Source of the DNA: a virus
Lineage: Duplodnaviria > Heunggongvirae > Uroviricota > Caudoviricetes
Direction: 5' to 3' (one strand)
IMG/VR virus record: IMGVR_UViG_2548876856_000003
Coordinates: 1-22,016 of that record
DNA: 22,016 bases
The notes beneath the pieces were generated by a model. That model made no database searches. It saw only the letters and a list, made by a program, of their open reading frames with translations, and had not been told where the DNA came from. This document shows positions 1-22,001 of this stretch, piece after piece. Made by a program: the position numbers and the translations under genes. The stretch's first letter is position 1, and each line of letters opens with the position of its first letter.

Positions 1-819
1 CTGCATTACTTTATCATTATATATATGATAATAAAAATAGGTTTCTTTACTAAGAGACTTGAAAGTTGAAGCTAATCCCATTGACTCAACTCCAGCAATG
101 ATGCCCAATGATTGCATCTCAGATAAAAAATTATAGTTTAGCTCATTATCTAAGTATTCGTTGCTGAAGTTCGAACCAACTTTCTCCCCCTTGATAATCC
201 TATCAAGAAAGAGAAAAGAGAACAGTTTTTGTATTTTATTTGCTTCTTTTTGTGTCAGATTTTTGATGAAATCAACAGTTCTTAATGAATACGAACCTGG
301 GCTTTTTAATTCACCTGCAAGTATTCTTCCCCATAAATCCTGTAACTTCTCTGAACTACTTGTTGCAGCACTATCTCTCCACCTTAGCAACCAATCATTT
401 TCTATATTTTCGGCAGTAGGCTCAGACTGATCAATTGAAAGTATTTCTTCGGCAACAAATAATGACTTGGCGATATTTATTTCTTTCTGGACTTCATTTG
501 CAATAAGTTGAGTGCTTACTGCATTTTTTAAATTATCGAAATTTATGTAAGGCTCCATTGAACCTGAATTATCATACTCTTGTTTACTTTCTAATGAAAT
601 CAGTTTGGGGTTGTTTAGATCATTTAACGAAACGATTGCTTTTCCACTTTTTATGTTCTCAACATCCATCTCTGTTTGAGCCAAAACTAACATTTTTTTC
701 CTTTCCATTTCTAAACTGGCAACTCCCTCCCTACGCATTTGCCAGGGCTTACATAAAGCGCCAATACCTTTTTCTGCTGTGGTTTCCCACAGTTTAGTTA
801 CAAGCTTTGAACCAAACAT
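1..819 (-). CDS. Hypothetical protein, partial (3' end lies beyond the window start); AT-rich accessory ORF
   Basis: Minus-strand frame is open from the ATG at 819-817 to position 1: I checked every plus-strand triplet in frame 1 and found no TTA/CTA/TCA. AGGAG lies 10 nt upstream of the ATG and an in-frame stop sits just upstream at 844-846. Absent from the ORF track because it has no stop in the window. Composition is much more AT-rich than the phage genes. No recognisable catalytic motif in the visible 273 aa. Confidence 0.6.
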   Translation of the reverse strand, partial: MFGSKLVTKLWETTAEKGIGALCKPWQMRREGVASLEMERKKMLVLAQTEMDVENIKSGKAIVSLNDLNNPKLISLESKQEYDNSGSMEPYINFDNLKNAVSTQLIANEVQKEINIAKSLFVAEEILSIDQSEPTAENIENDWLLRWRDSAATSSSEKLQDLWGRILAGELKSPGSYSLRTVDFIKNLTQKEANKIQKLFSFLFLDRIIKGEKVGSNFSNEYLDNELNYNFLSEMQSLGIIAGVESMGLASTFKSLSKETYFYYHIYNDKVMQ

Positions 820-822
820 TCT

Positions 823-834
823 AGGAGATCTCCT
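823..834. promoter_or_regulatory. 12-bp perfect palindrome AGGAGATCTCCT overlapping the ribosome-binding site of the 1-819 ORF
   Basis: The sequence is identical to its reverse complement. It contains the Shine-Dalgarno-like AGGAG and the complementary CTCCT immediately upstream of the minus-strand start codon. Confidence 0.3.
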
Positions 835-969
835 GCACCAATTTTAGGTAATAATATAATGCAAAAAATATAACGCACTGATTTTATAATGGAAAGATAT
901 CAGAGATCACTGGCATGAGTCTAGACAGAGCAATTTGGGCATAAATGATGACTCAAACGGGAGATATTC

Positions 970-1239
970 TCACGCTACAGTTGTGGCTTTCAGTAAATCC
1001 AGTGCCATCTGTTTTTGAGACGGTGACATGTTGTTAAGTAGGGCTTGAACAATCACATCACCCGTTTTCGCACTGGGGCTGAGAGTGTGGGAGAACGTCA
1101 GATTCATCACAAACGTATGGCCACACTCGACATCTGAACAGGCGCAGTAAATATCCGCAATCTGCCGGTGCTTCCGGTTTGTTTTACGAATAACAGCCTT
1201 TGAGCCGCATTCCGGGCATTCGATTTTCAGAACTCGCAT
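970..1239 (-). CDS. Ogr/Delta-family zinc-finger protein (phage late-gene transcription activator-like)
   Basis: Translation MRVLKIECPECGSKAVIRKTNRKHRQIADIYCACSDVECGHTFV has the CPxC...R.T.R...YCxC....CGHTF arrangement typical of P2 Ogr / P4 Delta zinc fingers. GGAG lies 8 nt upstream of the ATG at 1239. An alternative upstream start at 1293 overlaps the portal stop as ATGA. Confidence 0.65.
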   Translation of the reverse strand: MRVLKIECPECGSKAVIRKTNRKHRQIADIYCACSDVECGHTFVMNLTFSHTLSPSAKTGDVIVQALLNNMSPSQKQMALDLLKATTVA

Positions 1240-1289
1240 ATTCCATGCTCCAGCTGTTAAATGATGCCTGGATTTTAGCCTTTTTCGCC

Positions 1290-2351
1290 TCATGCCGCAT
1301 CCTTATCCGTTGATTCTGTGTAACTTAAATCAAAGTTAAGGCGCAGTCTTTCCGGTATTTCGGGATCGTTGTTAACAGCGGTCATAAACCTGCGCTGAAT
1401 GGGCGCTATCTCGCTTTTCTTGTAAATCCTTTCCGCCTTTTCAACATCCCCCAGACCGGCAGTGTTCTGCGGGACAATTCCTGCCAGTCCTGCCGGAAAG
1501 CGGTGCGCGTTGAGAATGTCCTGCGCACTGATGTTTTTGATGTTGGCAAATTCATCTTTTGCGGAGATATCCCCCATTTCAATGAACTTGATCGCATCCC
1601 CATCCCCGCCAGGAATGTTCACCAGAATAGTGGAGAAGTTACCGATACCTTTGCTGTCACGCAGTTGCTGTTCAATCTCTTCTTCCATTTCATCCGTCAT
1701 ACTGGGATCACGCGTGTAGAGAATGCCGCCAGTATGAGCGCCGTTGTGGTAGTAGCGGCGGCGAAAAATTACGGCTTCGCTGTTAAGCAATGCCGAGTGT
1801 ACGCCGCCGATATAGTCGGGCAGTCCGTAAATATGCTGTTGCGGGTCGTACATCTTGATAAAAATGATATCTTCCTGTGGCCATACCTGCGGTTCGCCGT
1901 CCTGCAATACCACATAATCGCCGGGCTGGTCTGTGGCGTTGTCCCTGACTTTACGCCGGCGAATATACAAGCCGGGTAAAGGTTCCAGGGCAATCACATC
2001 CCCCCATCCGTTGCGGATTTTGCCAATCGCAATATCCCCGAAGGTTGTATAGTCAAACGCTGCGGCTTCCAGCTGGTCGTAAGTCAGGCCACCGCCCAGA
2101 TAATCAGACACAATCATATTTTTCCGGGCGTGGATGATGCCGCCATGCTGACCGTTCAGATTGATGAGCTGTGCCAGTGCCAGCCGGTCAATCGGCTGGG
2201 TAAAGTGATCGGCGGCATTGTCGTACCAGATGTCGCGGTAATCCGTACCGGTGGTCAGCACGGGTTCCGGTTTGCCGAATGTAATGATGCTCATTTTTTT
2301 GGACTTATCGCCGCGCGGGTTGCGCTTAACGAAGCGGTTTTTTTTACTCAT
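1290..2351 (-). CDS. Phage portal protein (P2 gpQ-like)
   Basis: 353-aa ORF immediately downstream of, and overlapping by 4 nt, the large terminase gene. Size and position match the P2 Q/P arrangement, divergent from the capsid operon. Confidence 0.75.
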   Translation of the reverse strand: MSKKNRFVKRNPRGDKSKKMSIITFGKPEPVLTTGTDYRDIWYDNAADHFTQPIDRLALAQLINLNGQHGGIIHARKNMIVSDYLGGGLTYDQLEAAAFDYTTFGDIAIGKIRNGWGDVIALEPLPGLYIRRRKVRDNATDQPGDYVVLQDGEPQVWPQEDIIFIKMYDPQQHIYGLPDYIGGVHSALLNSEAVIFRRRYYHNGAHTGGILYTRDPSMTDEMEEEIEQQLRDSKGIGNFSTILVNIPGGDGDAIKFIEMGDISAKDEFANIKNISAQDILNAHRFPAGLAGIVPQNTAGLGDVEKAERIYKKSEIAPIQRRFMTAVNNDPEIPERLRLNFDLSYTESTDKDAA

Positions 2352-4123
2352 GCAGCCTCTTTCCTTACACCCCAGCGGGATTTCGGTTTGTTTTCGTAGT
2401 TGAGTGGTTCGTTATGCAGGGCGTGGGTAATTGCCCAGAACGCCTCCGCGTGGCCAGTGTCCTGGCTGCGGTCAGCGACAAATGTCATGGCGTTACCGCT
2501 TTGCGTGGTGGTGCGGCGTACAGCCATAAAGCTGGCCGGGATCTCTTTCAGGTTCTTGTCCCATTCAATACGCTGACTTTCCACCACGTCCGCCGCTTTC
2601 AGTACCAGCTGATTTTTCGTGTTCATGTCGTAACGAATGGCGACGGCCACGCGCATGGCAAAATGCTGGATGTTGTCAAAAACACCCTGGCCAATACCGG
2701 TAACGTCCACTCCCAGATAGGTGAAGTTGTATTTTTTAAACAGGAGTTCGATCTGCCTGGCCTGATAGCGGAAGTTCATGCCCTTCCAGTTAATAACCTT
2801 CAGAACGCGGAATTTCTCTGCGGCATACATCGGCGGGGCAATAATCACAAAACACGACAAATCGCCGCTGCGTGCCGGGTCAAAGCCTCCCCATACTGGC
2901 CTGTCACCAAATGGCCGCGCAGCGTCCGGGTTGTGATCCTGCCAGGTGTCCACTTCCACGCCACAGGCTTCCAGATCTGAAAAACTGAATACGGAATCCT
3001 TGCTGTCCACGAACACGCACATATAGAGCATGTTGAAGGTGGCCGTGTTGTAGCGGTTGCGCAGCTTCTCGATGTTGGCCAGGTTGAAGCCACCTGCAAT
3101 GGCATCTTCCATCGTGATGACATAGCGCCACTGCCCATCCGGGCAAAGCCGTCCGCCGTTGCGCATTTCATCAAAGGACGGGAACTGAGCGGCCGCGCGT
3201 TTTTTGCTGCCCTGTTTCCATTCTTCCCCCGTCCAGAACGGGTAAGCCTGGTGCGTTTTGGCCGATGGCGTTGAAAAGTAGGTGGTGCGCCATTTGTCAT
3301 GGGTGGCCATTGCGCTGGCCACTTCGTTAAGCCTGGCGAAGTTAGGCACCCAGAAATATTCGTCACAGTACAGGTGGCCACTGTAGGACTGTGCTGTGTT
3401 TTTGTTGGTTGAGAGAAAACGCAGTTCAGCGCCGTTGCTGAGGCGGATCGGGTTGCCGGTCAGCGTGATGCCAAAATACTGTTCTGCAATGTTGACGATG
3501 TAAGACCTGAAGTATTCCGCCTGGACTTTGGAGGCAGACAGGAAGATTTGCGGATCGCCTGTCATGACCGCGTTTTCAAAGGCTTCAAACGCAAAGTACC
3601 AGGTGGCACCGATCTGGCGACTTTTAAGGATGTTCCTGACCTGCTGGCCGATGTTTCTGCGCAGGTGTTTCTGGTATTCAAAAAGATGTTCTTCCGCCCA
3701 GGAGTCAAAATCTGCCTGGGTCAGAGAAGAAATATCGTTTTTCCTGTTTTTGCGTTTGGGGCGCGGTTCATCGCTGTTGCTGTCCCGCGCAGCTGCCTGA
3801 CCGTTACTCTGGCCGCTGGCCATCTTTTCTTTATGCTTATTGCTTTGAGCACGCAGCTTTGTGGCGTGGGCAATCAGCATGTCCATTTCTTTCAGGTCGA
3901 GATCGGTTTTATTATCGCGGCTGGCCAGCAGCTGGTAGCGGCGTTCAATTGCCTCCTCTGTACTTTCAAAGCTGAGTAAATCCGCCCAGCTGTATTTCTC
4001 AGCCCAGTAGTAAACGATCCGCGCATTCGGCAGATTTAATTCTGATGCAATTTCTTTGGGCGTATAGCGGCGCAAATAAAGTGCGCGGACAACGCCTTTT
4101 AGTTCTTCTGAGTATTTAGCCAT
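2348..4123 (-). CDS. Terminase large (ATPase) subunit (P2 gpP-like)
   Basis: 591 aa. Contains the terminase-type deviant Walker A segment KSRQIGATW and a C-terminal nuclease-like region. Divergent from the scaffold/capsid genes as in P2. Confidence 0.85.
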   Translation of the reverse strand: MAKYSEELKGVVRALYLRRYTPKEIASELNLPNARIVYYWAEKYSWADLLSFESTEEAIERRYQLLASRDNKTDLDLKEMDMLIAHATKLRAQSNKHKEKMASGQSNGQAAARDSNSDEPRPKRKNRKNDISSLTQADFDSWAEEHLFEYQKHLRRNIGQQVRNILKSRQIGATWYFAFEAFENAVMTGDPQIFLSASKVQAEYFRSYIVNIAEQYFGITLTGNPIRLSNGAELRFLSTNKNTAQSYSGHLYCDEYFWVPNFARLNEVASAMATHDKWRTTYFSTPSAKTHQAYPFWTGEEWKQGSKKRAAAQFPSFDEMRNGGRLCPDGQWRYVITMEDAIAGGFNLANIEKLRNRYNTATFNMLYMCVFVDSKDSVFSFSDLEACGVEVDTWQDHNPDAARPFGDRPVWGGFDPARSGDLSCFVIIAPPMYAAEKFRVLKVINWKGMNFRYQARQIELLFKKYNFTYLGVDVTGIGQGVFDNIQHFAMRVAVAIRYDMNTKNQLVLKAADVVESQRIEWDKNLKEIPASFMAVRRTTTQSGNAMTFVADRSQDTGHAEAFWAITHALHNEPLNYENKPKSRWGVRKEAA

Positions 4124-4284
4124 GCGGATAATTATGCCGTGGCTGTTATGAAAAAACGGCGGTGTTAATTCGCGTCTGTTCGGTAATACGTGATAACCGA
4201 ACTGTTCAGAATAAAGCGTGATGCGGTGGTGGTTTTATTAGGCAATAATTGATTTGCAGCGTCGGTGAATAAATCAGGGGGGAT
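4124..4284. promoter_or_regulatory. Divergent intergenic region between the terminase/portal operon and the capsid operon; contains a 7-bp inverted repeat GTTCGGT-N11-ACCGAAC (4178-4202)
   Basis: 161-bp non-coding gap between divergently transcribed late operons. The inverted repeat was read directly from the sequence. It is not an exact P2-type TGT-N12-ACA site. Confidence 0.4.
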
Positions 4285-5088
4285 ATGTCGCATTTAAAAA
4301 CTGACTGGCTGTGTGTTGCTACCGAGGGGGATACTGTTGACGGCAGAGATATTAAACGTCAGTGGATTATCGATATGGGGGAAACCTATGACTATAACCA
4401 CTATGTCGCTTTAATCTGGCCAGAACATGAGGATGATTGCGGTAATTTTGGGGAGGTACTGGAAGCCACCTGGCATGATGGTGAGGATGGACTGGCGCGG
4501 CTTTACGTCAGCCTTTGCCCGAATATGCGTCTGATATTCGCCAACCATGAAGATCAGCTCCTGTTCTTCTCGATTGAACCGGAAGAAAACTGGCGCGGTA
4601 GTGGGCGTACATACCTCAAGGGGCTGGCGGTGACAGATACTCCCGCCAGTGTTGGCACCACACGGCTGCGCTTTAGTAGTCGGCGCAAAAAATTATCTAA
4701 GCAGGGATATTACAGTTGTGTGATTTCCCGTGATGGAAAAATAAAACAGGAAATTCGAATGAAGAACTGGCAAAAATTGTTTGGTATTAAACCGAAGTTT
4801 GAAGATGAAACGCCGCCTGATGATACCGCACAGGGTGATGATAAGTTACAGGTGCTGGCCAACGCGGTAAACGAACTGGAAGGCCGTGTGGCCAAAATTG
4901 AAAATCAGCTGAATGATGTTCAGGGTGATGTAGATACCATTGCGGAAGTGGTCGATACCGAAGAATTTGCGGCTATTCGTGATAATGCAAAAGATATCGT
5001 TCAACGTTTTAACGATCTGGGTAATAAATCAACCCGTACACCAGGGCGCAAGATTTCAGAAAAAGCGGGTAAGTTTAATTTCCTGTAA
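4285..5088 (+). CDS. Capsid scaffolding protein (P2 gpO-like)
   Basis: The motifs EGDTVDGR and YLKGLAVTDTPASVGT match my recollection of conserved gpO segments. First gene of the rightward capsid operon; C-terminal region is charged and coiled-coil-like. Confidence 0.8.
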   Translation: MSHLKTDWLCVATEGDTVDGRDIKRQWIIDMGETYDYNHYVALIWPEHEDDCGNFGEVLEATWHDGEDGLARLYVSLCPNMRLIFANHEDQLLFFSIEPEENWRGSGRTYLKGLAVTDTPASVGTTRLRFSSRRKKLSKQGYYSCVISRDGKIKQEIRMKNWQKLFGIKPKFEDETPPDDTAQGDDKLQVLANAVNELEGRVAKIENQLNDVQGDVDTIAEVVDTEEFAAIRDNAKDIVQRFNDLGNKSTRTPGRKISEKAGKFNFL

Positions 5089-8633: not shown

Positions 8634-9757
8634 CCTGGCCAAACGTGACCGTGAACCAGGTAAACCAGCTGCTGGGTGAAACCAATGAAGTGGAGCGCAC
8701 GCTGCTGTTTATCGGTACGGGTACCAAAAATGTGGGGAAAACGCTGGCGGTGAATGCCCAGAGTGACTTTGATGCACTGCTGGGAGAGGGGGAAAGCCCG
8801 CTGAAAAACGATGTTCTGGCGGCACTGGCAAACGCCGGTCAGAACTGGTGGGGATTTATTCATGTGCTGTCCGCAGATGCTGAGGACGATGCCTGGGTGA
8901 AAGCGGTTCTGGCCGCACAGGTAGTGTGTTCGGTGGAAGGTGTGGTGCTGTCCAGTGATGTGACGGCAAAAGCCCAGGTGAATCAGGCAGTGACGTTACG
9001 ATCCACGCTGATTTCCAAATATGGGCGCTGGGTGTGGTTCATCCTGGCCGTGCAGGGAATACAGGAAGAAGAAGCCCAGGCGGATTACCTGACCCGTGTG
9101 TCTGCCATCCAGGACGGTATTGCAGAGAAGGCTGTGCAGCTGGTCCCGCGTCTGTGGGGAAATGAGCCGGGTGTGCTGGCTGGCCGTCTGTGCAGCCGTG
9201 CCGTGACTATCGCGGACAGTCCCGCCCGTGTGAAAACTGGGGCGCTGTTGAATCTGGGCAGTGATGAAATGCCGGTTGATGGTACCGGAGCGGTACTGGA
9301 GCTGGCCACGCTTCAGGCACTGGAATCGCAGCGCTTTAGTGTGCCGATGTGGTACCCGGATTATGACGGTTTTTACTGGGCTGACGGGCGAACGCTGGAT
9401 GTGGAAGGCGGCGATTACCAGTCGATTGAAACCCTGCGAGTTGCCGATAAAGCAGCGCGTCGTGTACGTCTGCTGGCTATCAGCAAAATTGCGGATCGTT
9501 CACTCAACAGCACACCGGGCAGCATTGCTGCACACCAGACGCTGTTTGCACGTCCACTGCGTGAAATGTCCACAGCGGCCAGTATCAATGGCGTGTCATT
9601 TCCGGGGGAAGTGAAGCCGCCGCAGGAGGGTGATGTGACCATTGTCTGGAAGAACAAAAAGACGGTGGATATTTATCTTGTGGTACGCACCTGGGAAGTT
9701 CCGCTGCAAATCACCATCAGTCTGTTACTGGATGCCAGTCTGGAGGGCGCTGCATGA
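8630..9757 (+). CDS. Putative tail sheath protein
   Basis: 375 aa, sits immediately before a roughly 150-aa gene in the usual sheath-then-tube order of contractile tails. ATGA-coupled on both sides. Assigned by context only. Confidence 0.5.
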   Translation: MTWPNVTVNQVNQLLGETNEVERTLLFIGTGTKNVGKTLAVNAQSDFDALLGEGESPLKNDVLAALANAGQNWWGFIHVLSADAEDDAWVKAVLAAQVVCSVEGVVLSSDVTAKAQVNQAVTLRSTLISKYGRWVWFILAVQGIQEEEAQADYLTRVSAIQDGIAEKAVQLVPRLWGNEPGVLAGRLCSRAVTIADSPARVKTGALLNLGSDEMPVDGTGAVLELATLQALESQRFSVPMWYPDYDGFYWADGRTLDVEGGDYQSIETLRVADKAARRVRLLAISKIADRSLNSTPGSIAAHQTLFARPLREMSTAASINGVSFPGEVKPPQEGDVTIVWKNKKTVDIYLVVRTWEVPLQITISLLLDASLEGAA

Positions 9758-10219: not shown

Positions 10220-10522
10220 ATGCAGGAACATGAAAAGAGCCTTTATTCACTGCTGATTATGGGGGCGCTCATTGCTGTTGCGAAGGTGCTGGCCAGTGAT
10301 GATCCCATTACACCGCGCCTGTTTATCAGCCGTGTGATCCTGGGCAGTTTTGTTTCAGTCATCGCTGGCGCGGTGCTGATTCAAATCCCGGAGGCCAGCC
10401 CGCTGGCAATTCAGGGACTGGGGGCAGCGCTGGGTATTGCAGGTTATCAGGCTGTTGAAATGTGGCTGCGCAGACGTGCAGCGGGAAAGAAGAACGGGAG
10501 CGTGACAAATGACCCTGAGTGA
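10220..10522 (+). CDS. Holin (three predicted transmembrane segments)
   Basis: 100 aa with three hydrophobic stretches and a charged C-terminal tail (RRRAAGKKNGSVTNDPE). Immediately upstream of the endolysin. AGGAAG RBS. Confidence 0.7.
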   Translation: MQEHEKSLYSLLIMGALIAVAKVLASDDPITPRLFISRVILGSFVSVIAGAVLIQIPEASPLAIQGLGAALGIAGYQAVEMWLRRRAAGKKNGSVTNDPE

Positions 10523-10850
10523 AAAGCAGCAGCTGTTTACCGTCATGGTGGCCAACCTGATCCACTGGGCAGAAGAACGCGGCTACCGGCTGACGTTTGG
10601 TGAAGCGTACCGCACCCCGGAACAGGCGGCGCTGAACGCGAAGAAGGGCAGCGGCATTTCGAACAGTCTGCACACCCAGCGTCTGGCCGTGGATTTTAAT
10701 CTGTTTGTGAATGGCCAGTACCAGACCCGTACAGAGGACTATCTGCCGTTGGGTGAATACTGGGAATCACTGGGCGGAAGCTGGGGCGGGCGCTTCAAAT
10801 CCAGACCGGATGGTAATCATTTCAGCCTGGAACATAACGGGGTGCGCTGA
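10509..10850 (+). CDS. Endolysin, peptidase M15 family (zinc D,D- or L-Ala-D-Glu peptidase type)
   Basis: 113 aa with the H-x6-D arrangement (SLHTQRLAVDF) and a downstream His pair (DGNHFSLEH), consistent with M15 zinc ligands. Overlaps the holin end. Confidence 0.75.
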   Translation: MTLSEKQQLFTVMVANLIHWAEERGYRLTFGEAYRTPEQAALNAKKGSGISNSLHTQRLAVDFNLFVNGQYQTRTEDYLPLGEYWESLGGSWGGRFKSRPDGNHFSLEHNGVR

Positions 10851-11783: not shown

Positions 11784-13747
11784 AACAGTTAGATTTTACA
11801 TTAAGCCTTATTGATAAATTGTCCCTCCCGTTAAAACAGGCGCAGGGCAACGTAACGGGCTTTGCTGAAAAATCAAAAGAAGCCTTTATGCAGACTGGTG
11901 GCGGTGTTCTGGCGCTGGCGGGTACAGGGATGGCCATTAAAGGTGCGCTGATGCCCGCTATTGAAATGTATGACGCGCTGAATGATGCGGCCGCAAAAGG
12001 GATCGATGATTCTGCTCTTAAGGCCGTTCAGCGTGATGCGCTGCGCTTCAGTACAACCTACGGCGCCAGTGCGGTGGAGTTTGTCCAGTCCACGGAAAGT
12101 ATAAACGCCTCCATTGCCGGGCTGACCGGGAATGAGCTGCCGAAAGTGACGAAAGTCGCCAATACCCTGGCGTTTGCGCTCAAATCCACCGCAGCGGAAA
12201 CCGCTGAGTTTATGGGGCAGATGTTCGGTAACTTTTCCGCCGATGCCAACCGGCTGGGAAAGGTTGAGTTTGCTGAACAACTGGCCGGAAAAATGGTGTA
12301 CATGCGCAAAACCTTTGGCACGGAAATGGCTGCTATCAAGGATTTGATGGAAGGGGCGCGCGGCGTGGGTACTAACTACGGCGTGGGACTGGATGAACAG
12401 CTGGCCGTGCTGGGACAGCTTCAGCGGACACTGGGCACGGAAGCCAGCAGCGCTTATGAAGGCTTCATGACCGGAGCCATTGAGGGCGGTAAAAAGCTGG
12501 GACTGTCCTTCACGGATTCCACCGGCAAAATGCTGTCCATGCCTGAAATGCTGATCAAGTTACAGGGCAAGTATGGCAAAAGTCTGGAAGGGAATCTGAA
12601 AGCCCAGGCTGAACTGGATGCGGCATTTGGTGACAGTTCTGCGGTGGTGAAACACCTTTATGGCAATGTGGCGCTGCTTCAGCGCAATATCACAGAACTG
12701 GGCGGTGCAGATGGTCTGAAGCGTACCCAGGAAATGGCGCAGAAAATGGTGAAGCCGTGGGATCGCTTTGTCGCAATCCTGAAGGCTATCCAAACCGTGA
12801 TTGGCCTGACGCTGATCCCGGTGCTCTATCCAGTTCTGAACCGCCTGGCTGATATGGGGCAGACTTTTGCCCGCTGGATGCAGCTGTTTCCCAACATTGC
12901 GCGTGTTGTCGGGTATGCGGCAATGGCCTTGCTCAGCTTTGCGGCTGTGGGTGCTGTCGCCAATATTGTTATGGGTGCCTCTAAATTCATCATGATGGGG
13001 TTGCGCGGGATCTGGGTGGCGCTGATGGCCGTCACGAAAATTTACACTGCCACTGTCTGGCTGGGAAACATTGCCGTTGTTGCCTGGAACGCCACGCTGA
13101 AATTTCTGCGCGGTACGTTGCTGGCGGTTCGTATGGCGGCAATGATGGCCGGGATAGGTATCAATCTGATGAGCTGGCCGATCCTGCTGGTGATTGGTGC
13201 CGTCGCCTTACTTGCTGCCGGTTGCTGGCTGCTGATTAAGCACTGGGACACGGTAAAGAACGCGGTCATGGATACCGCTGCATTTCAGGCATGCGCCAGT
13301 GTAGTGGAATGGCTGGCCGGGGTGTTTACTTCAGCCTGGCAGTTTATCAGCGAAGGATGGAACAGTTTTATTTCCATGCTGACCGGGTTTTCTCCTTCAC
13401 AGGCATTAAGCGGTCTGGCCACGGGTATTGTTTCGTTGTTTGATAATGTCTGGCTATCCGTTAAAAACGGTTTTCTGAAGTCGTGGAACTGGATTGTTGA
13501 GAAACTGAATAAAATCCCCGGTGTGGATATATCAATGGCCAGTACCACTTCACCACCATTAACTGGAAATACGTTGTCAACGGGTGGAGAGATAAAAGGA
13601 ATTGATAAGGGCGGGATAAATAAAACAATCAGTAGCAATTCTAAATCAGTCACTGATAACAGCAAAAAAATAGGGGAGGTTCATTTCCATACCAAAGAAG
13701 CGATGTCCCCTGGTCAGTTAATGGAATGGCAGGAGCTAAATGCGTGA
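11780..13747 (+). CDS. Tail tape measure protein
   Basis: 655 aa. Alpha-helical, Ala/Leu-rich N-terminal half, a central block of hydrophobic segments and a C-terminal Ser/Thr-rich region. Located directly after the chaperone frameshift pair. Confidence 0.85.
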   Translation: MKQLDFTLSLIDKLSLPLKQAQGNVTGFAEKSKEAFMQTGGGVLALAGTGMAIKGALMPAIEMYDALNDAAAKGIDDSALKAVQRDALRFSTTYGASAVEFVQSTESINASIAGLTGNELPKVTKVANTLAFALKSTAAETAEFMGQMFGNFSADANRLGKVEFAEQLAGKMVYMRKTFGTEMAAIKDLMEGARGVGTNYGVGLDEQLAVLGQLQRTLGTEASSAYEGFMTGAIEGGKKLGLSFTDSTGKMLSMPEMLIKLQGKYGKSLEGNLKAQAELDAAFGDSSAVVKHLYGNVALLQRNITELGGADGLKRTQEMAQKMVKPWDRFVAILKAIQTVIGLTLIPVLYPVLNRLADMGQTFARWMQLFPNIARVVGYAAMALLSFAAVGAVANIVMGASKFIMMGLRGIWVALMAVTKIYTATVWLGNIAVVAWNATLKFLRGTLLAVRMAAMMAGIGINLMSWPILLVIGAVALLAAGCWLLIKHWDTVKNAVMDTAAFQACASVVEWLAGVFTSAWQFISEGWNSFISMLTGFSPSQALSGLATGIVSLFDNVWLSVKNGFLKSWNWIVEKLNKIPGVDISMASTTSPPLTGNTLSTGGEIKGIDKGGINKTISSNSKSVTDNSKKIGEVHFHTKEAMSPGQLMEWQELNA

Positions 13748-20952: not shown

Positions 20953-20978
20953 GCCCGCGCATGTTACGGGCTTTTTTG
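20953..20978 (+). terminator. Rho-independent terminator closing the rightward late operon
   Basis: GCCCG (20953-20957), a 9-nt loop, CGGGC (20967-20971), then TTTTTT (20972-20977), 12 nt after the spike stop codon. Confidence 0.65.
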
Positions 20979-21208
20979 TACCCATCCCCAGACCCCACAA
21001 GACGCATTCTAAGCGCTTCTTTCATCTGACCACTACCGCGCAAGACCACAAAAGGATCTGTGCTGTCACGCTACGCTGACGGCGTTACACGCTGACAAAA
21101 TAAATCTTTCGGAGACAAAAACGGCACTACACCGCACCCGCCTGCGGTTTCTGGATCGATAAAATTTTTCAGTTTTCTTTTTCTACAAACCCGAGCACCA
21201 GACAGCGC

Positions 21209-21491: not shown

Positions 21492-22001
21492 TTAATTCAT
21501 CAGTTTCTTTTGCTTTGCAGCAGACGTAATTACCTTTTTATTTATAGTAAATACATTTATTTCTGGCACGGATGTATAATCACCATCATCAGTGATGATA
21601 TTCGTAATGCCATGGTTTAACATAGTTTCATGAATCATGAGGTCATAACCATCTAAGGTATTTCCAGTCATTTTTGATGCACAAGCATCTGTTAATTTTT
21701 GGCATATTGTTAAGTCAACTTGCGGTGCAATCTGTTTTACTTGAGCCCACGAAACCTCAACTTCTTTCATTGCAAGTTGCCTTTCCTTTGCATATTTATG
21801 CCTGAATTCCTTAGTCCTAATATTTGATTTTATTGTTGCCTCGTGTATTTCTCTTTCAGTGGACTCAATTATATGTGCGAGTTCGGCTAAAGATAAGCCA
21901 GAGTGAAACAGTTGTGAGTTGTTAGAAATACAATCGCTAATAAAATTAACGTAGGTATTTAGATACTGTCTGTTAGACGGTATGCCTTTTGTATAAGTCA
22001 T
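21492..22001 (-). CDS. Hypothetical protein, AT-rich; weak PIN-like nuclease pattern in the C-terminal half; may extend beyond the window end
   Basis: 169-aa ORF from the track. The frame is still open for the 15 nt between the ATG and the window end, so the true start may lie outside. The segment DLMIHETMLNHGITNIITDDGDY resembles the C-terminal strand-helix-strand of PIN-domain nucleases. AT-rich, unlike the phage genes. Confidence 0.45.
   Translation of the reverse strand: MTYTKGIPSNRQYLNTYVNFISDCISNNSQLFHSGLSLAELAHIIESTEREIHEATIKSNIRTKEFRHKYAKERQLAMKEVEVSWAQVKQIAPQVDLTICQKLTDACASKMTGNTLDGYDLMIHETMLNHGITNIITDDGDYTSVPEINVFTINKKVITSAAKQKKLMN

Follow-up and report, generated by a model that had tools for sequence, protein, structure and literature searches.

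The minus-strand open reading frame 970..1293, which lies in a 22,016-nt stretch of viral DNA (the window), encodes a protein of 107 aa and is probably the gene of an Ogr/Delta late activator with two routes of expression, its own promoter and read-through from the late genes upstream, and with a single TTCGG-N13-CCGAA dyad as its site of action. Family membership, synteny, sequence conservation and promoter geometry were the observations on which this model was built; promoter activity, translation of an N-terminal extension, DNA binding and activation are its predictions. The kind of gene, its annotation in RefSeq and the placement of ogr beside the portal gene are already known.

A Pfam profile search matched residues 25-71 of the protein (1081..1221, minus strand) to profile positions 1-47 of 47 of PF04606, Ogr_Delta, with an E-value of 9.1e-20 and 70.8 bits, the curated cut-off of this profile being 26.3 bits; the HMM comparison proposed in the preliminary description covered the whole profile. 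PHROG 603, "transcriptional regulator", was also matched (E 1.7e-43). The Ogr/Delta cysteine pattern had been recognized correctly in that description: C26, C29, C52 and C57 (codons 1218-1216, 1209-1207, 1140-1138 and 1125-1123) are spaced C-X2-C-X22-C-X4-C and are invariant in an alignment with P2 Ogr and K139 orf13, and P27, Y49, T60 and F61 are shared with P2 Ogr in addition to the four cysteines. This is the sole ORF with a CX2C-X20-24-CX4C pattern in the 36-kb prophage, which also carries P2/HP1-type terL, portal, scaffold, capsid and HP1_ORF34 baseplate genes. The protein is small (89 or 107 aa, depending on the start), encoded by a P2-like phage and present once per genome. Judged from its sequence, it is the product of the single Ogr/Delta-family zinc-finger gene of an ESSI-2/K139/HP1-type P2-like E. 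coli prophage, and it is predicted to bind zinc and the dyad and to activate late transcription via the alpha subunit of RNA polymerase, the subunit through which P2 Ogr acts. A homologue was not found by a sequence search of the PDB, and an AlphaFold model calculated from a 38-sequence alignment was of low confidence (mean pLDDT 55, pTM 0.24) and therefore too poor for a fold search.

The same protein subfamily includes gp26 of Escherichia phage ESSI2_ev040 / Cronobacter phage ESSI-2, with 90% identity in the case of ESSI2_ev040, and orf13 of Vibrio phage K139, with 55% identity, together with the homologues of Smhb1 and Kappa. P2 Ogr (72 aa) shares the Pfam family and the cysteine spacing at approximately 25% identity. 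Zinc-finger proteins of this family that activate P2-type late promoters are also known from phage 186 (B), satellite P4 (Delta, a tandem duplication) and phiR73 (Delta). The gene of 186 B is directly repressed by CI, and neither this gene nor that of P4 Delta is attached to a portal gene.

The portal gene (1290..2351, minus strand, 353 aa, PF04860) is located directly upstream of ogr in the same direction and is preceded by the large terminase gene terL (2348..4123, minus strand), with which the leftward late unit begins. The order terL-portal-ogr was observed in all 36 close loci examined and in phages K139 (orf13) and ESSI2_ev040. In both phages and in 34 of the 34 closest genome loci, as in the window and its source genome, these genes converge with a replication gene, which ogr faces. 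An unannotated ogr remnant was detected at the corresponding place behind the portal gene of HP1. The placement of ogr, regarded in the preliminary description as a departure from the norm, is shown by these comparisons to be the usual arrangement in the K139/HP1/ESSI-2 branch of Peduoviridae, and the location of the homologue between the portal and replication genes has been stated in print for K139 and Smhb1 (PMC8537503). The description of ogr as the last gene of the leftward terminase-portal transcript held in one part: the gene does follow the portal gene directly, but it is not clearly the last, since a DUF2806 gene on the same strand starts at 819, 150 bp beyond ogr, and no terminator between the two was found in a scan of 700-4400. 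The folding of this spacer was no better than that of shuffled sequence (z -0.34).

Within the ORF, a second in-frame ATG at 1239 (Met19) defines a short form of 89 aa (970..1239, minus strand), which is the annotated start in ESSI2_ev040 and the one used by the Vibrio/K139 homologues; the long form of 107 aa is that of RefSeq (WP_032246131.1). The internal start is preceded at a distance of 8 nt by a GGAG Shine-Dalgarno sequence (1248..1251, minus strand). Of the 36 loci, 34 retain this ATG and two have GTG instead, and GGAG or GGA is kept 7-9 nt upstream. A hexamer TAAAAT, the putative -10 of ogr's own promoter, is situated 32 nt before the internal ATG (1272..1277, minus strand), in codons 6-8 of the extension that distinguishes the two forms. 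It is invariant at the nucleotide level in 35/36 loci, while the codons that overlap it change amino acid. The codon providing its first two letters is CTA (14 loci), GTA (13), TTA (5) or ATA (3), encoding L, V or I, whereas just 21% of the L/I/V codons of the core end in A; the second codon is AAA in 34/36 loci, and the following one always begins with T, encoding S, F or Y. The heptamer TTAAAAT is also kept in homologues that have no adjoining portal gene (L039 and L044). In addition, synonymous sites have diverged less in the extension than in the core (pS 0.38 versus 0.71). The conservation of TAAAAT points to an internal promoter that would yield the 89-aa protein.

Promoter prediction in the 3' end of the portal gene, which the preliminary description had suggested, gave a divided answer: a scan of 700-4400 found no sigma-70 consensus promoter on the minus strand in this region, and the sequence 17 bp upstream of TAAAAT, TGCGGC, is a poor -35, but the hexamer itself is conserved in the proportion given above. 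A 5-bp hairpin over the internal Shine-Dalgarno sequence was not conserved. For an activator dyad upstream of ogr's own promoter there was a single candidate, the small palindrome TAACTT-N6-AAGTTA near 1331, which was rejected, being confined to the closest relatives. A comparison of the CI/early control region with the region upstream of ogr for common operators gave nothing meaningful, and a LexA box, present in the Vibrio relatives, is absent at ogr here.

The upstream start of the long form overlaps the portal stop as ATGA, as had been noted from the sequence: tcat at 1290-1293 of the plus strand reads ATGA on the minus strand (1290..1293), with the ogr ATG at 1293..1291 and the portal TGA at 1292..1290. 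A Shine-Dalgarno-like AAGGA (1300..1304, minus strand) is located in the 3' end of the portal gene, 6 nt before this ATG, and all relatives have a GG(G/A)TG-type element at its position. In 30 of 33 relatives an A precedes the portal TGA, and this is so across six different last portal codons (GCA, GAA, AAA, TTA, GTA and CAA). The in-frame ATG 54 nt upstream of the core start is kept in 33/36 loci as ATGA, as TAATG or as an in-frame ATG, even in loci with a displaced portal stop: TAATG occurs in L008, L009 and L032, and in L033 and L034 the ATG lies 16 nt inside the portal gene. In the two loci with an internal GTG (L008 and L009) the upstream ATG is retained. The 36 loci are phylogenetically related, and therefore the counts over them do not represent independent events.

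The 18-codon extension is open in 36/36 loci; because one alternative frame across it is likewise open in 28/36, the open frame alone is weak evidence for its translation. Its pN/pS is 0.2-0.5, which is below 1, and its basic character is kept (MRRKRLKSR / MSKKMVKSRK). Nevertheless, it changes far more quickly than the core, with a pN/pS of 0.52 versus 0.05 in the E. coli-like clade. The portal/ogr junction folded no better than shuffled sequence (z -1.09). The conservation of the ATG at the portal stop suggests that the 107-aa form is translated from the late transcript by coupling to the portal gene, and such coupling would therefore create positive feedback. The preliminary description had offered positive feedback or an internal promoter as alternatives; the comparison of the loci supports both together, with TAAAAT and the upstream in-frame ATG each conserved.

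A search of the divergent promoter region for binding-site dyads, likewise suggested beforehand, detected TTCGGTAATACGTGATAACCGAA (TTCGG-N13-CCGAA) at 4179..4201, the sole perfect copy in the window and a candidate activator site that is conserved across the relatives. The dyad lies midway between the divergent promoters of terL and scaffold, and -10-like hexamers are found 54-54.5 bp from its centre on both sides. The putative -10 of the leftward late promoter, CATAAT (4131..4136, minus strand), is 54 bp from the centre, with its end 7 nt upstream of the terL ATG, and that of the rightward (scaffold) promoter, AATAAT (4244..4249, plus strand), is also 54 bp away; both are without a -35, and the implied centre of the dyad is near -66 relative to each promoter. 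In 613 kb of loci, 30 perfect TTCGG-N13/14-CCGAA dyads were counted against approximately 1.2 expected; 27 of them are in the terL/scaffold gap and one (L039) is between ogr and divergent tail genes. This prophage, K139 and ESSI2_ev040 have one dyad per genome, located in the two phages in the same divergent late control region. The dyad at 4179-4201 is likely to be the target of the Ogr-like protein, common to the divergent terL and scaffold late promoters.

The P2 late-promoter motif TGT-N12-ACA was rejected as the operator, since its two matches in the window, below the chance expectation, are both inside genes and the intergenic regions of the window have none. The difference between TTCGG-N13-CCGAA and TGT-N12-ACA suggests that DNA specificity varies within the Ogr/Delta family and does not speak against membership by fold. 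It was also observed that co-occurrence is the only tie between the dyad and the Ogr-like protein.

Three other explanations were weighed against the two-route model. One holds that only the 89-aa protein matters, made from its own promoter and ribosome-binding site, and treats the ATGA overlap and the open frame of 18 codons as side effects of an ogr promoter region abutting the portal stop, with the extended protein a functionless minor product. The Vibrio/K139 homologues, which begin at the equivalent Met, have in-frame stops just upstream and a gap of 57-260 nt behind the portal gene, and the short start annotated in ESSI2_ev040 also agrees with this explanation, as do the variable sequence and high pN/pS (0.52) of the extension and the second open frame; moreover, the constant 50-nt spacing could stem from promoter geometry and not from coding. 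This explanation has to contend, however, with the in-frame ATG at -54 nt, kept even where the portal stop is displaced, with the third-position A before TGA behind six different last codons, with the conserved GG(G/A)TG element and the basic extension, and with the upstream ATG of the two loci whose internal codon is GTG, and it was considered rather unlikely. The opposite explanation, that there is no internal promoter, was judged very unlikely. In this case Ogr would be made solely as the last cistron of the terL-portal late transcript, by basal leakage and then feedback, and TAAAAT would be kept for another reason, e.g., as a binding site, an RNA element or a protein motif. The sigma-70 consensus promoter that was not detected and the lack of a recognizable -35 favor it, and so do the ATGA overlap and the absence of a terminator, from which read-through into ogr must therefore occur. 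But TAAAAT is conserved as nucleotides while the amino acids change on both sides, the hexamer and its spacing match the annotated ogr -10 of P2, and TTAAAAT persists in homologues with no upstream portal gene; the internal Shine-Dalgarno sequence and ATG are conserved as well, promoter-like elements are present in a separate upstream region of K139, and an activator whose synthesis depended solely on the promoter it activates would have no defined trigger.

Finally, the zinc finger of the Ogr fold could have a different job, for example repression or the control of cargo genes, with late transcription switched on by other means. The identity to P2 Ogr of only about 25%, a late-promoter dyad unlike the P2 motif and the fact that no experimental test of any member of the subfamily was found in the literature searched leave room for such a role. 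Against it are the uniqueness of this Ogr-like gene in the prophage, a conserved synteny with late genes that extends from E. coli to Vibrio and Haemophilus, late promoters that lack a -35 and have an upstream dyad arranged as in P2, and the position of the L039 dyad between ogr and tail genes. This explanation appears highly improbable, more so than the other two.

The two-route model is closely paralleled by P2. There, too, ogr comes last after a late operon (FETUD), with a promoter of its own in the gap between D and ogr, and the terminator is annotated "for ogr transcript and F operon"; therefore, the regulatory topology here is probably the same and only the attached operon differs. The annotated ogr -10 of P2 is TAAAAT, 34 nt from the ATG, compared with 32 nt from the internal ATG here, and a single "activator binding site; pO, pP promoters" is annotated in P2 between divergent start sites. 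On the other hand, P2 ogr is behind the tail gene D and next to attP, not the portal gene, and it has an 81-bp intergenic promoter region, no upstream overlap and its own terminator. Its site is of the TGT-N12-ACA type with the centre at -55/-56, compared with TTCGG-N13-CCGAA and an implied centre near -66 here.

According to the two-route model, a weak sigma-70 promoter of ogr, with TAAAAT (1277-1272) as its -10 and without a good -35, would start an mRNA approximately 25 nt upstream of the internal ATG at 1239. Translated from its own GGAG, this mRNA would give the 89-aa protein that triggers late transcription. The protein would bind the single dyad, about 66 bp upstream of each divergent promoter, and recruit RNA polymerase in the manner of P2 Ogr, so that terL-portal-ogr would be driven leftward and the scaffold, capsid and tail genes rightward. 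After the late onset, the terL-portal transcript would read into ogr, because there is neither a gap nor a terminator between them. Ribosomes ending at the portal TGA could then re-initiate at the overlapping ATG and produce the 107-aa form with its basic N-terminal extension of 18 residues; internal initiation on the late transcript may occur too. The outcome would be positive feedback, as in P2, where the late F operon upstream also reads ogr.

K139 differs from this arrangement: orf13 is set apart from the portal gene by the small ORF orf14 and a gap of 260 nt, it has no N-terminal extension, and its upstream region has a LexA-box-like CTGT-N8-ACAG. In the Enterobacterales clade, unlike in K139, ogr abuts the portal stop with the 18-codon extension in frame. 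More tentatively, the ogr promoter region of the ESSI-2-like phages of Enterobacterales may have been turned into a portal-coupled in-frame extension, giving a short isoform as a trigger and later a long, basic-tailed isoform for feedback, and the K139/HP1/ESSI-2 subfamily, together with P4-like satellites that carry a close homologue, may form a second DNA-specificity class of the Ogr/Delta family, recognizing TTCGG-N13-CCGAA and not TGT-N12-ACA.

The importance of these results beyond the biology of P2-like phages is small, the gene being annotated in RefSeq, the family well studied and the position already in print. They do provide testable predictions for an experimentally unexplored branch, namely the exact -10 of the activator promoter and a pair of synonymous mutations that would separate the two expression routes, as well as a candidate operator, TTCGG-N13-CCGAA, by which all of the late genes would be controlled from a single bidirectional region. 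The predictions could also aid the annotation of late promoters in HP1/K139-like prophages and the forecasting of satellite-helper pairing. Satellites carry their own copy of the activator to use the late genes of the helper. In P4-like satellite loci, a search of the 4 kb around the homologous gene detected no dyad. The homologues encoded by a separate set of P4-like satellites (L040-L057) are approximately 55% identical to the protein described here and resemble it far more than P2 Ogr and P4 Delta do.

The minus-strand ORF at 970..1293 encodes a product of 107 aa, of which residues 25-71 matched all 47 positions of the Pfam Ogr_Delta profile (E 9e-20, 70.8 bits, with a cut-off of 26.3 bits). 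The cysteines, spaced C-X2-C-X22-C-X4-C, aligned with those of P2 Ogr and of K139 orf13, and this was the only ORF with the Ogr Cys pattern in the 36 kb spanning the prophage. The Ogr/Delta assignment made in the preliminary description was thus confirmed by profile match and spacing; the protein, which RefSeq names "Ogr/Delta-like zinc finger protein", is an unremarkable representative of this known family. The overlap of its upstream start with the portal stop, reported as ATGA, was also found, as the first ogr ATG (1293-1291) lies over the portal TGA (1292-1290), with AAGGA 6 nt 5' of this ATG. A second in-frame ATG, preceded by GGAG 8 nt upstream, is located at 1239.

The first 2.4 kb of the window showed 99.8% identity to E. 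coli strain mip270_05, and the window is part of a prophage that adjoins mntS in that strain. In the order of the mip270_05 prophage, integrase and CI on one strand are followed by a rightward early operon (cox-like gene, CII, fil, others, replication endonuclease and a 60-aa ORF), by DUF2806, Ogr-like, portal and large terminase genes on the strand opposite to the early operon, and by the rightward scaffold, capsid, small terminase, head completion, tail, lysis, tape measure, baseplate and fibre genes. Since the nearest sequenced phages are of the ESSI-2 type (Escherichia ESSI2_ev040, ev015 and ev129 and Cronobacter ESSI-2; Peduoviridae, Quadragintavirus; 80-88% DNA identity), Vibrio phage K139 is a more distant relative and one baseplate protein matches Pfam HP1_ORF34, the prophage belongs to the HP1/K139/ESSI-2 branch of P2-like phages and not to the P2/186 branch. 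Behind the last tail/baseplate gene (end 20941), a hairpin and a T-run (about 20955-20985) are followed by low-GC DNA, which holds a minus-strand ORF of 169 aa (21492-22001) with a weak, sub-threshold PIN-domain match; the segment 20990-22016 is probably the prophage end plus neighbouring cargo or host DNA.

The placement behind the portal gene, which had been contrasted with P2, proved to be the rule among relatives. In tblastn searches of phage records, the homologue adjoins the portal gene in the ESSI2_ev phages, ESSI-2 and Yersinia phage vB_YenM_324 and likewise in Salmonella phages SW3, SW5 and SI7, and the K139/Kappa homologue near the portal is orf13, a "zinc-finger protein". Sampling one genome per species gave 80 loci. 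The 34 nearest, which have 59-92% identity and range from Raoultella to Xenorhabdus, Serratia, Pragia and Buttiauxella, all carry a portal homologue, or the 3' part of one, directly 5' of ogr, with terL ahead of it; the replication gene downstream of ogr is usually convergent. The same terL-portal-ogr order was observed in several Vibrio and Photobacterium loci. In HP1, the 337-bp gap 3' of the portal gene holds an unannotated, apparently frameshifted Ogr-like reading frame (about 10417-10709 of the HP1 record; 3418-3710 of our locus L087), with CTVC in one frame and YCACKNPLCGHRFVMNMEFSHT in the other, a split explained either by a frameshift in a pseudogene or by an error in the old sequencing. 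Other papers describe wide variation in the position of ogr among P2-like phages, and the position behind the portal is standard, and already published, for the HP1/K139/ESSI-2 group.

The 90 nt 5' of the internal start were aligned for 36 loci (34 distinct sequences). The hexamer TAAAAT (1277-1272 in the window) was found in 35 of them, where it covers three codons of the N-terminal extension. The codon supplying TA is CTA in 14 loci, GTA in 13, TTA in five and ATA in three, so that Leu, Val or Ile is encoded but the ending is always TA; among the L/I/V codons of the zinc-finger core in these genes, A is the last base in only 21%. AAA follows in 34/36 loci (it makes up 73% of Lys codons in the core), and the third codon always begins with T and encodes Ser, Phe or Tyr. 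Because the bases stay while the encoded residues change, this conservation reflects a constraint on the DNA and not on the protein. In the E. coli-like clade, synonymous divergence was 0.38 in the extension versus 0.71 in the core. Moreover, the annotated -10 of P2 ogr is the same hexamer, 34 nt from the ATG in P2 versus 32 nt here, and TTAAAAT is kept in two homologues no longer behind a portal gene (L039 and L044). The internal start is ATG in 34 loci and GTG in two, and the GGAG/GGA upstream is also kept. An internal promoter, one of the options proposed earlier, is backed by the conserved TAAAAT but not by the consensus promoter scan, which reported none here; since the -35, 17 bp upstream, is also a poor match, the candidate promoter, if real, would be weak or factor-dependent. 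No CI-operator-like or LexA-like site was found at this promoter in the window.

In all 36 loci no stop codon interrupts the 18-codon stretch from the portal stop to the internal start, which alone is weak evidence because one alternative frame is also open in 28/36. In 33/36 loci an in-frame ATG is found 54 nt before the internal start; where the portal stop is TAA the overlap becomes TAATG (L008, L009, L032), and in L033 and L034 the portal gene is 16 nt longer and the position of the ATG is unchanged. The first base of ATGA comes from the third position of the final portal codon and is A in 30/33 loci, across six codons (GCA, GAA, AAA, TTA, GTA, CAA). The extension is basic (e.g., MRRKRLKSRHH, MSKKMVKSRK) and fast-evolving, with pN/pS of 0.52 (E. 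coli-like clade) and 0.21 (Xenorhabdus) compared with 0.05-0.075 for the core, and it is missing from the Vibrio homologues. Judging from these patterns, there is a good chance that the 107-aa form is translated.

The P2 motif TGT-N12-ACA was absent from the intergenic regions of the window. Within the 161-bp terL/scaffold gap, a perfect TTCGG-N13-CCGAA dyad was found at 4179-4201, the only copy in the window. Its counterparts in relatives, E. coli to Vibrio, occupy the equivalent gap and have a spacer of N13 or N14. In 613 kb of loci, 30 perfect dyads were observed versus about 1.2 expected, 27 of them inside this gap, two 5' of ogr in Photobacterium and one in L039 (3746-3768), between the ogr homologue and divergent tail genes. 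K139, ESSI2_ev040 and this prophage have exactly one dyad each. Every Enterobacterales locus has a -10-like CATAAT on the terL side, exactly 54-54.5 bp from the dyad centre, and many have a mirror AATAAT at 54 bp on the scaffold side; no credible -35 was found for either. The design in P2 is the same, with a single site annotated "activator binding site; pO, pP promoters" halfway between divergent starts, 55-56 bp from each. The dyad centre here would be near -66, farther out by one helical turn. We infer that the Ogr-like protein binds the dyad because the two occur together and because there is precedent in the family. L039, an Enterobacteriaceae MAG locus with sheath, tube and M15 peptidase tail genes and no head genes within 4 kb, may represent a tailocin-like or rearranged derivative in which activator and operator were retained together.

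The inferred leftward -10 (CATAAT, 4136-4131, minus strand) ends 7 nt short of the terL ATG, and the interval lacks a Shine-Dalgarno sequence (4124-4136), and in K139 a TATGAT (L002, about 1860-1874) ends 6 nt before the annotated terL ATG. Given these distances, the late terL mRNA of the E. coli and Vibrio clades may lack a leader; in Xenorhabdus relatives, terL has one of 30-40 nt with a Shine-Dalgarno sequence.

In P2, a gap of 81 bp separates ogr from tail gene D; the -35 and -10 of the ogr promoter are annotated within this gap, and the terminator behind ogr is annotated "rho-independent terminator for ogr transcript and F operon". From this annotation, ogr of P2 likewise comes last behind a late operon and has an internal promoter. 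Birkeland, Lindqvist and Christie reportedly found in 1991 two sources of ogr transcripts, the ogr promoter and, at late times of infection, P_F. The contrast previously drawn with P2 does not extend to the topology, which is the same here; only the operon attached to ogr differs. In the proposed mechanism, an 89-aa activator would be made from the weak promoter of ogr and would bind the single dyad, switching on both late units; the leftward unit would then read through portal into ogr, and coupled re-initiation, possibly with internal initiation, would yield more activator, a positive feedback as in P2. The observation itself stands, and the preliminary interpretation is partly supported. 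What the analysis adds is modest but testable: the nucleotide-level TAAAAT signature of a candidate promoter, the coupled start retained across loci and the TTCGG dyad.

Additionally, K139-like Vibrio phages conserve a LexA-box-like CTGT-N8-ACAG (e.g., AACTGTACAAAAACACAGC) about 50-65 nt 5' of the ogr-like start (L002 4938-4953, about 12354-12369 of the K139 record; also L061, L072-L075, L078 and L079). It overlaps promoter elements annotated as P13 and suggests that the late activator gene is directly SOS-controlled in these phages; it is absent upstream of ogr in the clade of the window. In the source genome (L003), a near-consensus LexA box, CTGTATGCATATACAG (13388-13403), lies about 600 bp left of the window start, directly before the 60-aa ORF (13428-13610) that ends the early operon after the replication gene, an arrangement shared with phage 186, where the Tum antirepressor is under LexA control. 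Another LexA-box-like site, CTGTATTGCCGTACAG (9143-9158), lies in the CI/cox control region.

The AT-rich block at 1-969 (32-39% GC, versus about 50-55% in phage genes) holds the minus-strand DUF2806 gene, which starts at 819, continues beyond the left edge of the window (its product has 345 aa in the source genome) and lies between ogr and the replication module. A promoter-like TTTCCA-17-TATATT is present at 895-867 (minus strand), and no PADLOC match was obtained in this block. Similarity to relatives ends inside the 3' end of ogr, at about 1045, and the content of the ogr-rep interval differs among relatives, as in a cargo hotspot. Homologues with about 55% identity to the Ogr-like protein of the window also occur in P4-like satellites (L040-L043, L045-L057), in the order Ash-family protein, DUF5375, alpha-type primase (Zn_Ribbon_Prim, Toprim, DUF927), ogr-like gene, variable defence-type gene (retron-like reverse transcriptase in L048, GmrSD/HNH in L041) and integrase. 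No TTCGG dyad was found within 4 kb in these satellite loci; three TGTTACC direct repeats precede their ogr-like gene. These satellites may be adapted to ESSI-2/HP1-type helpers.
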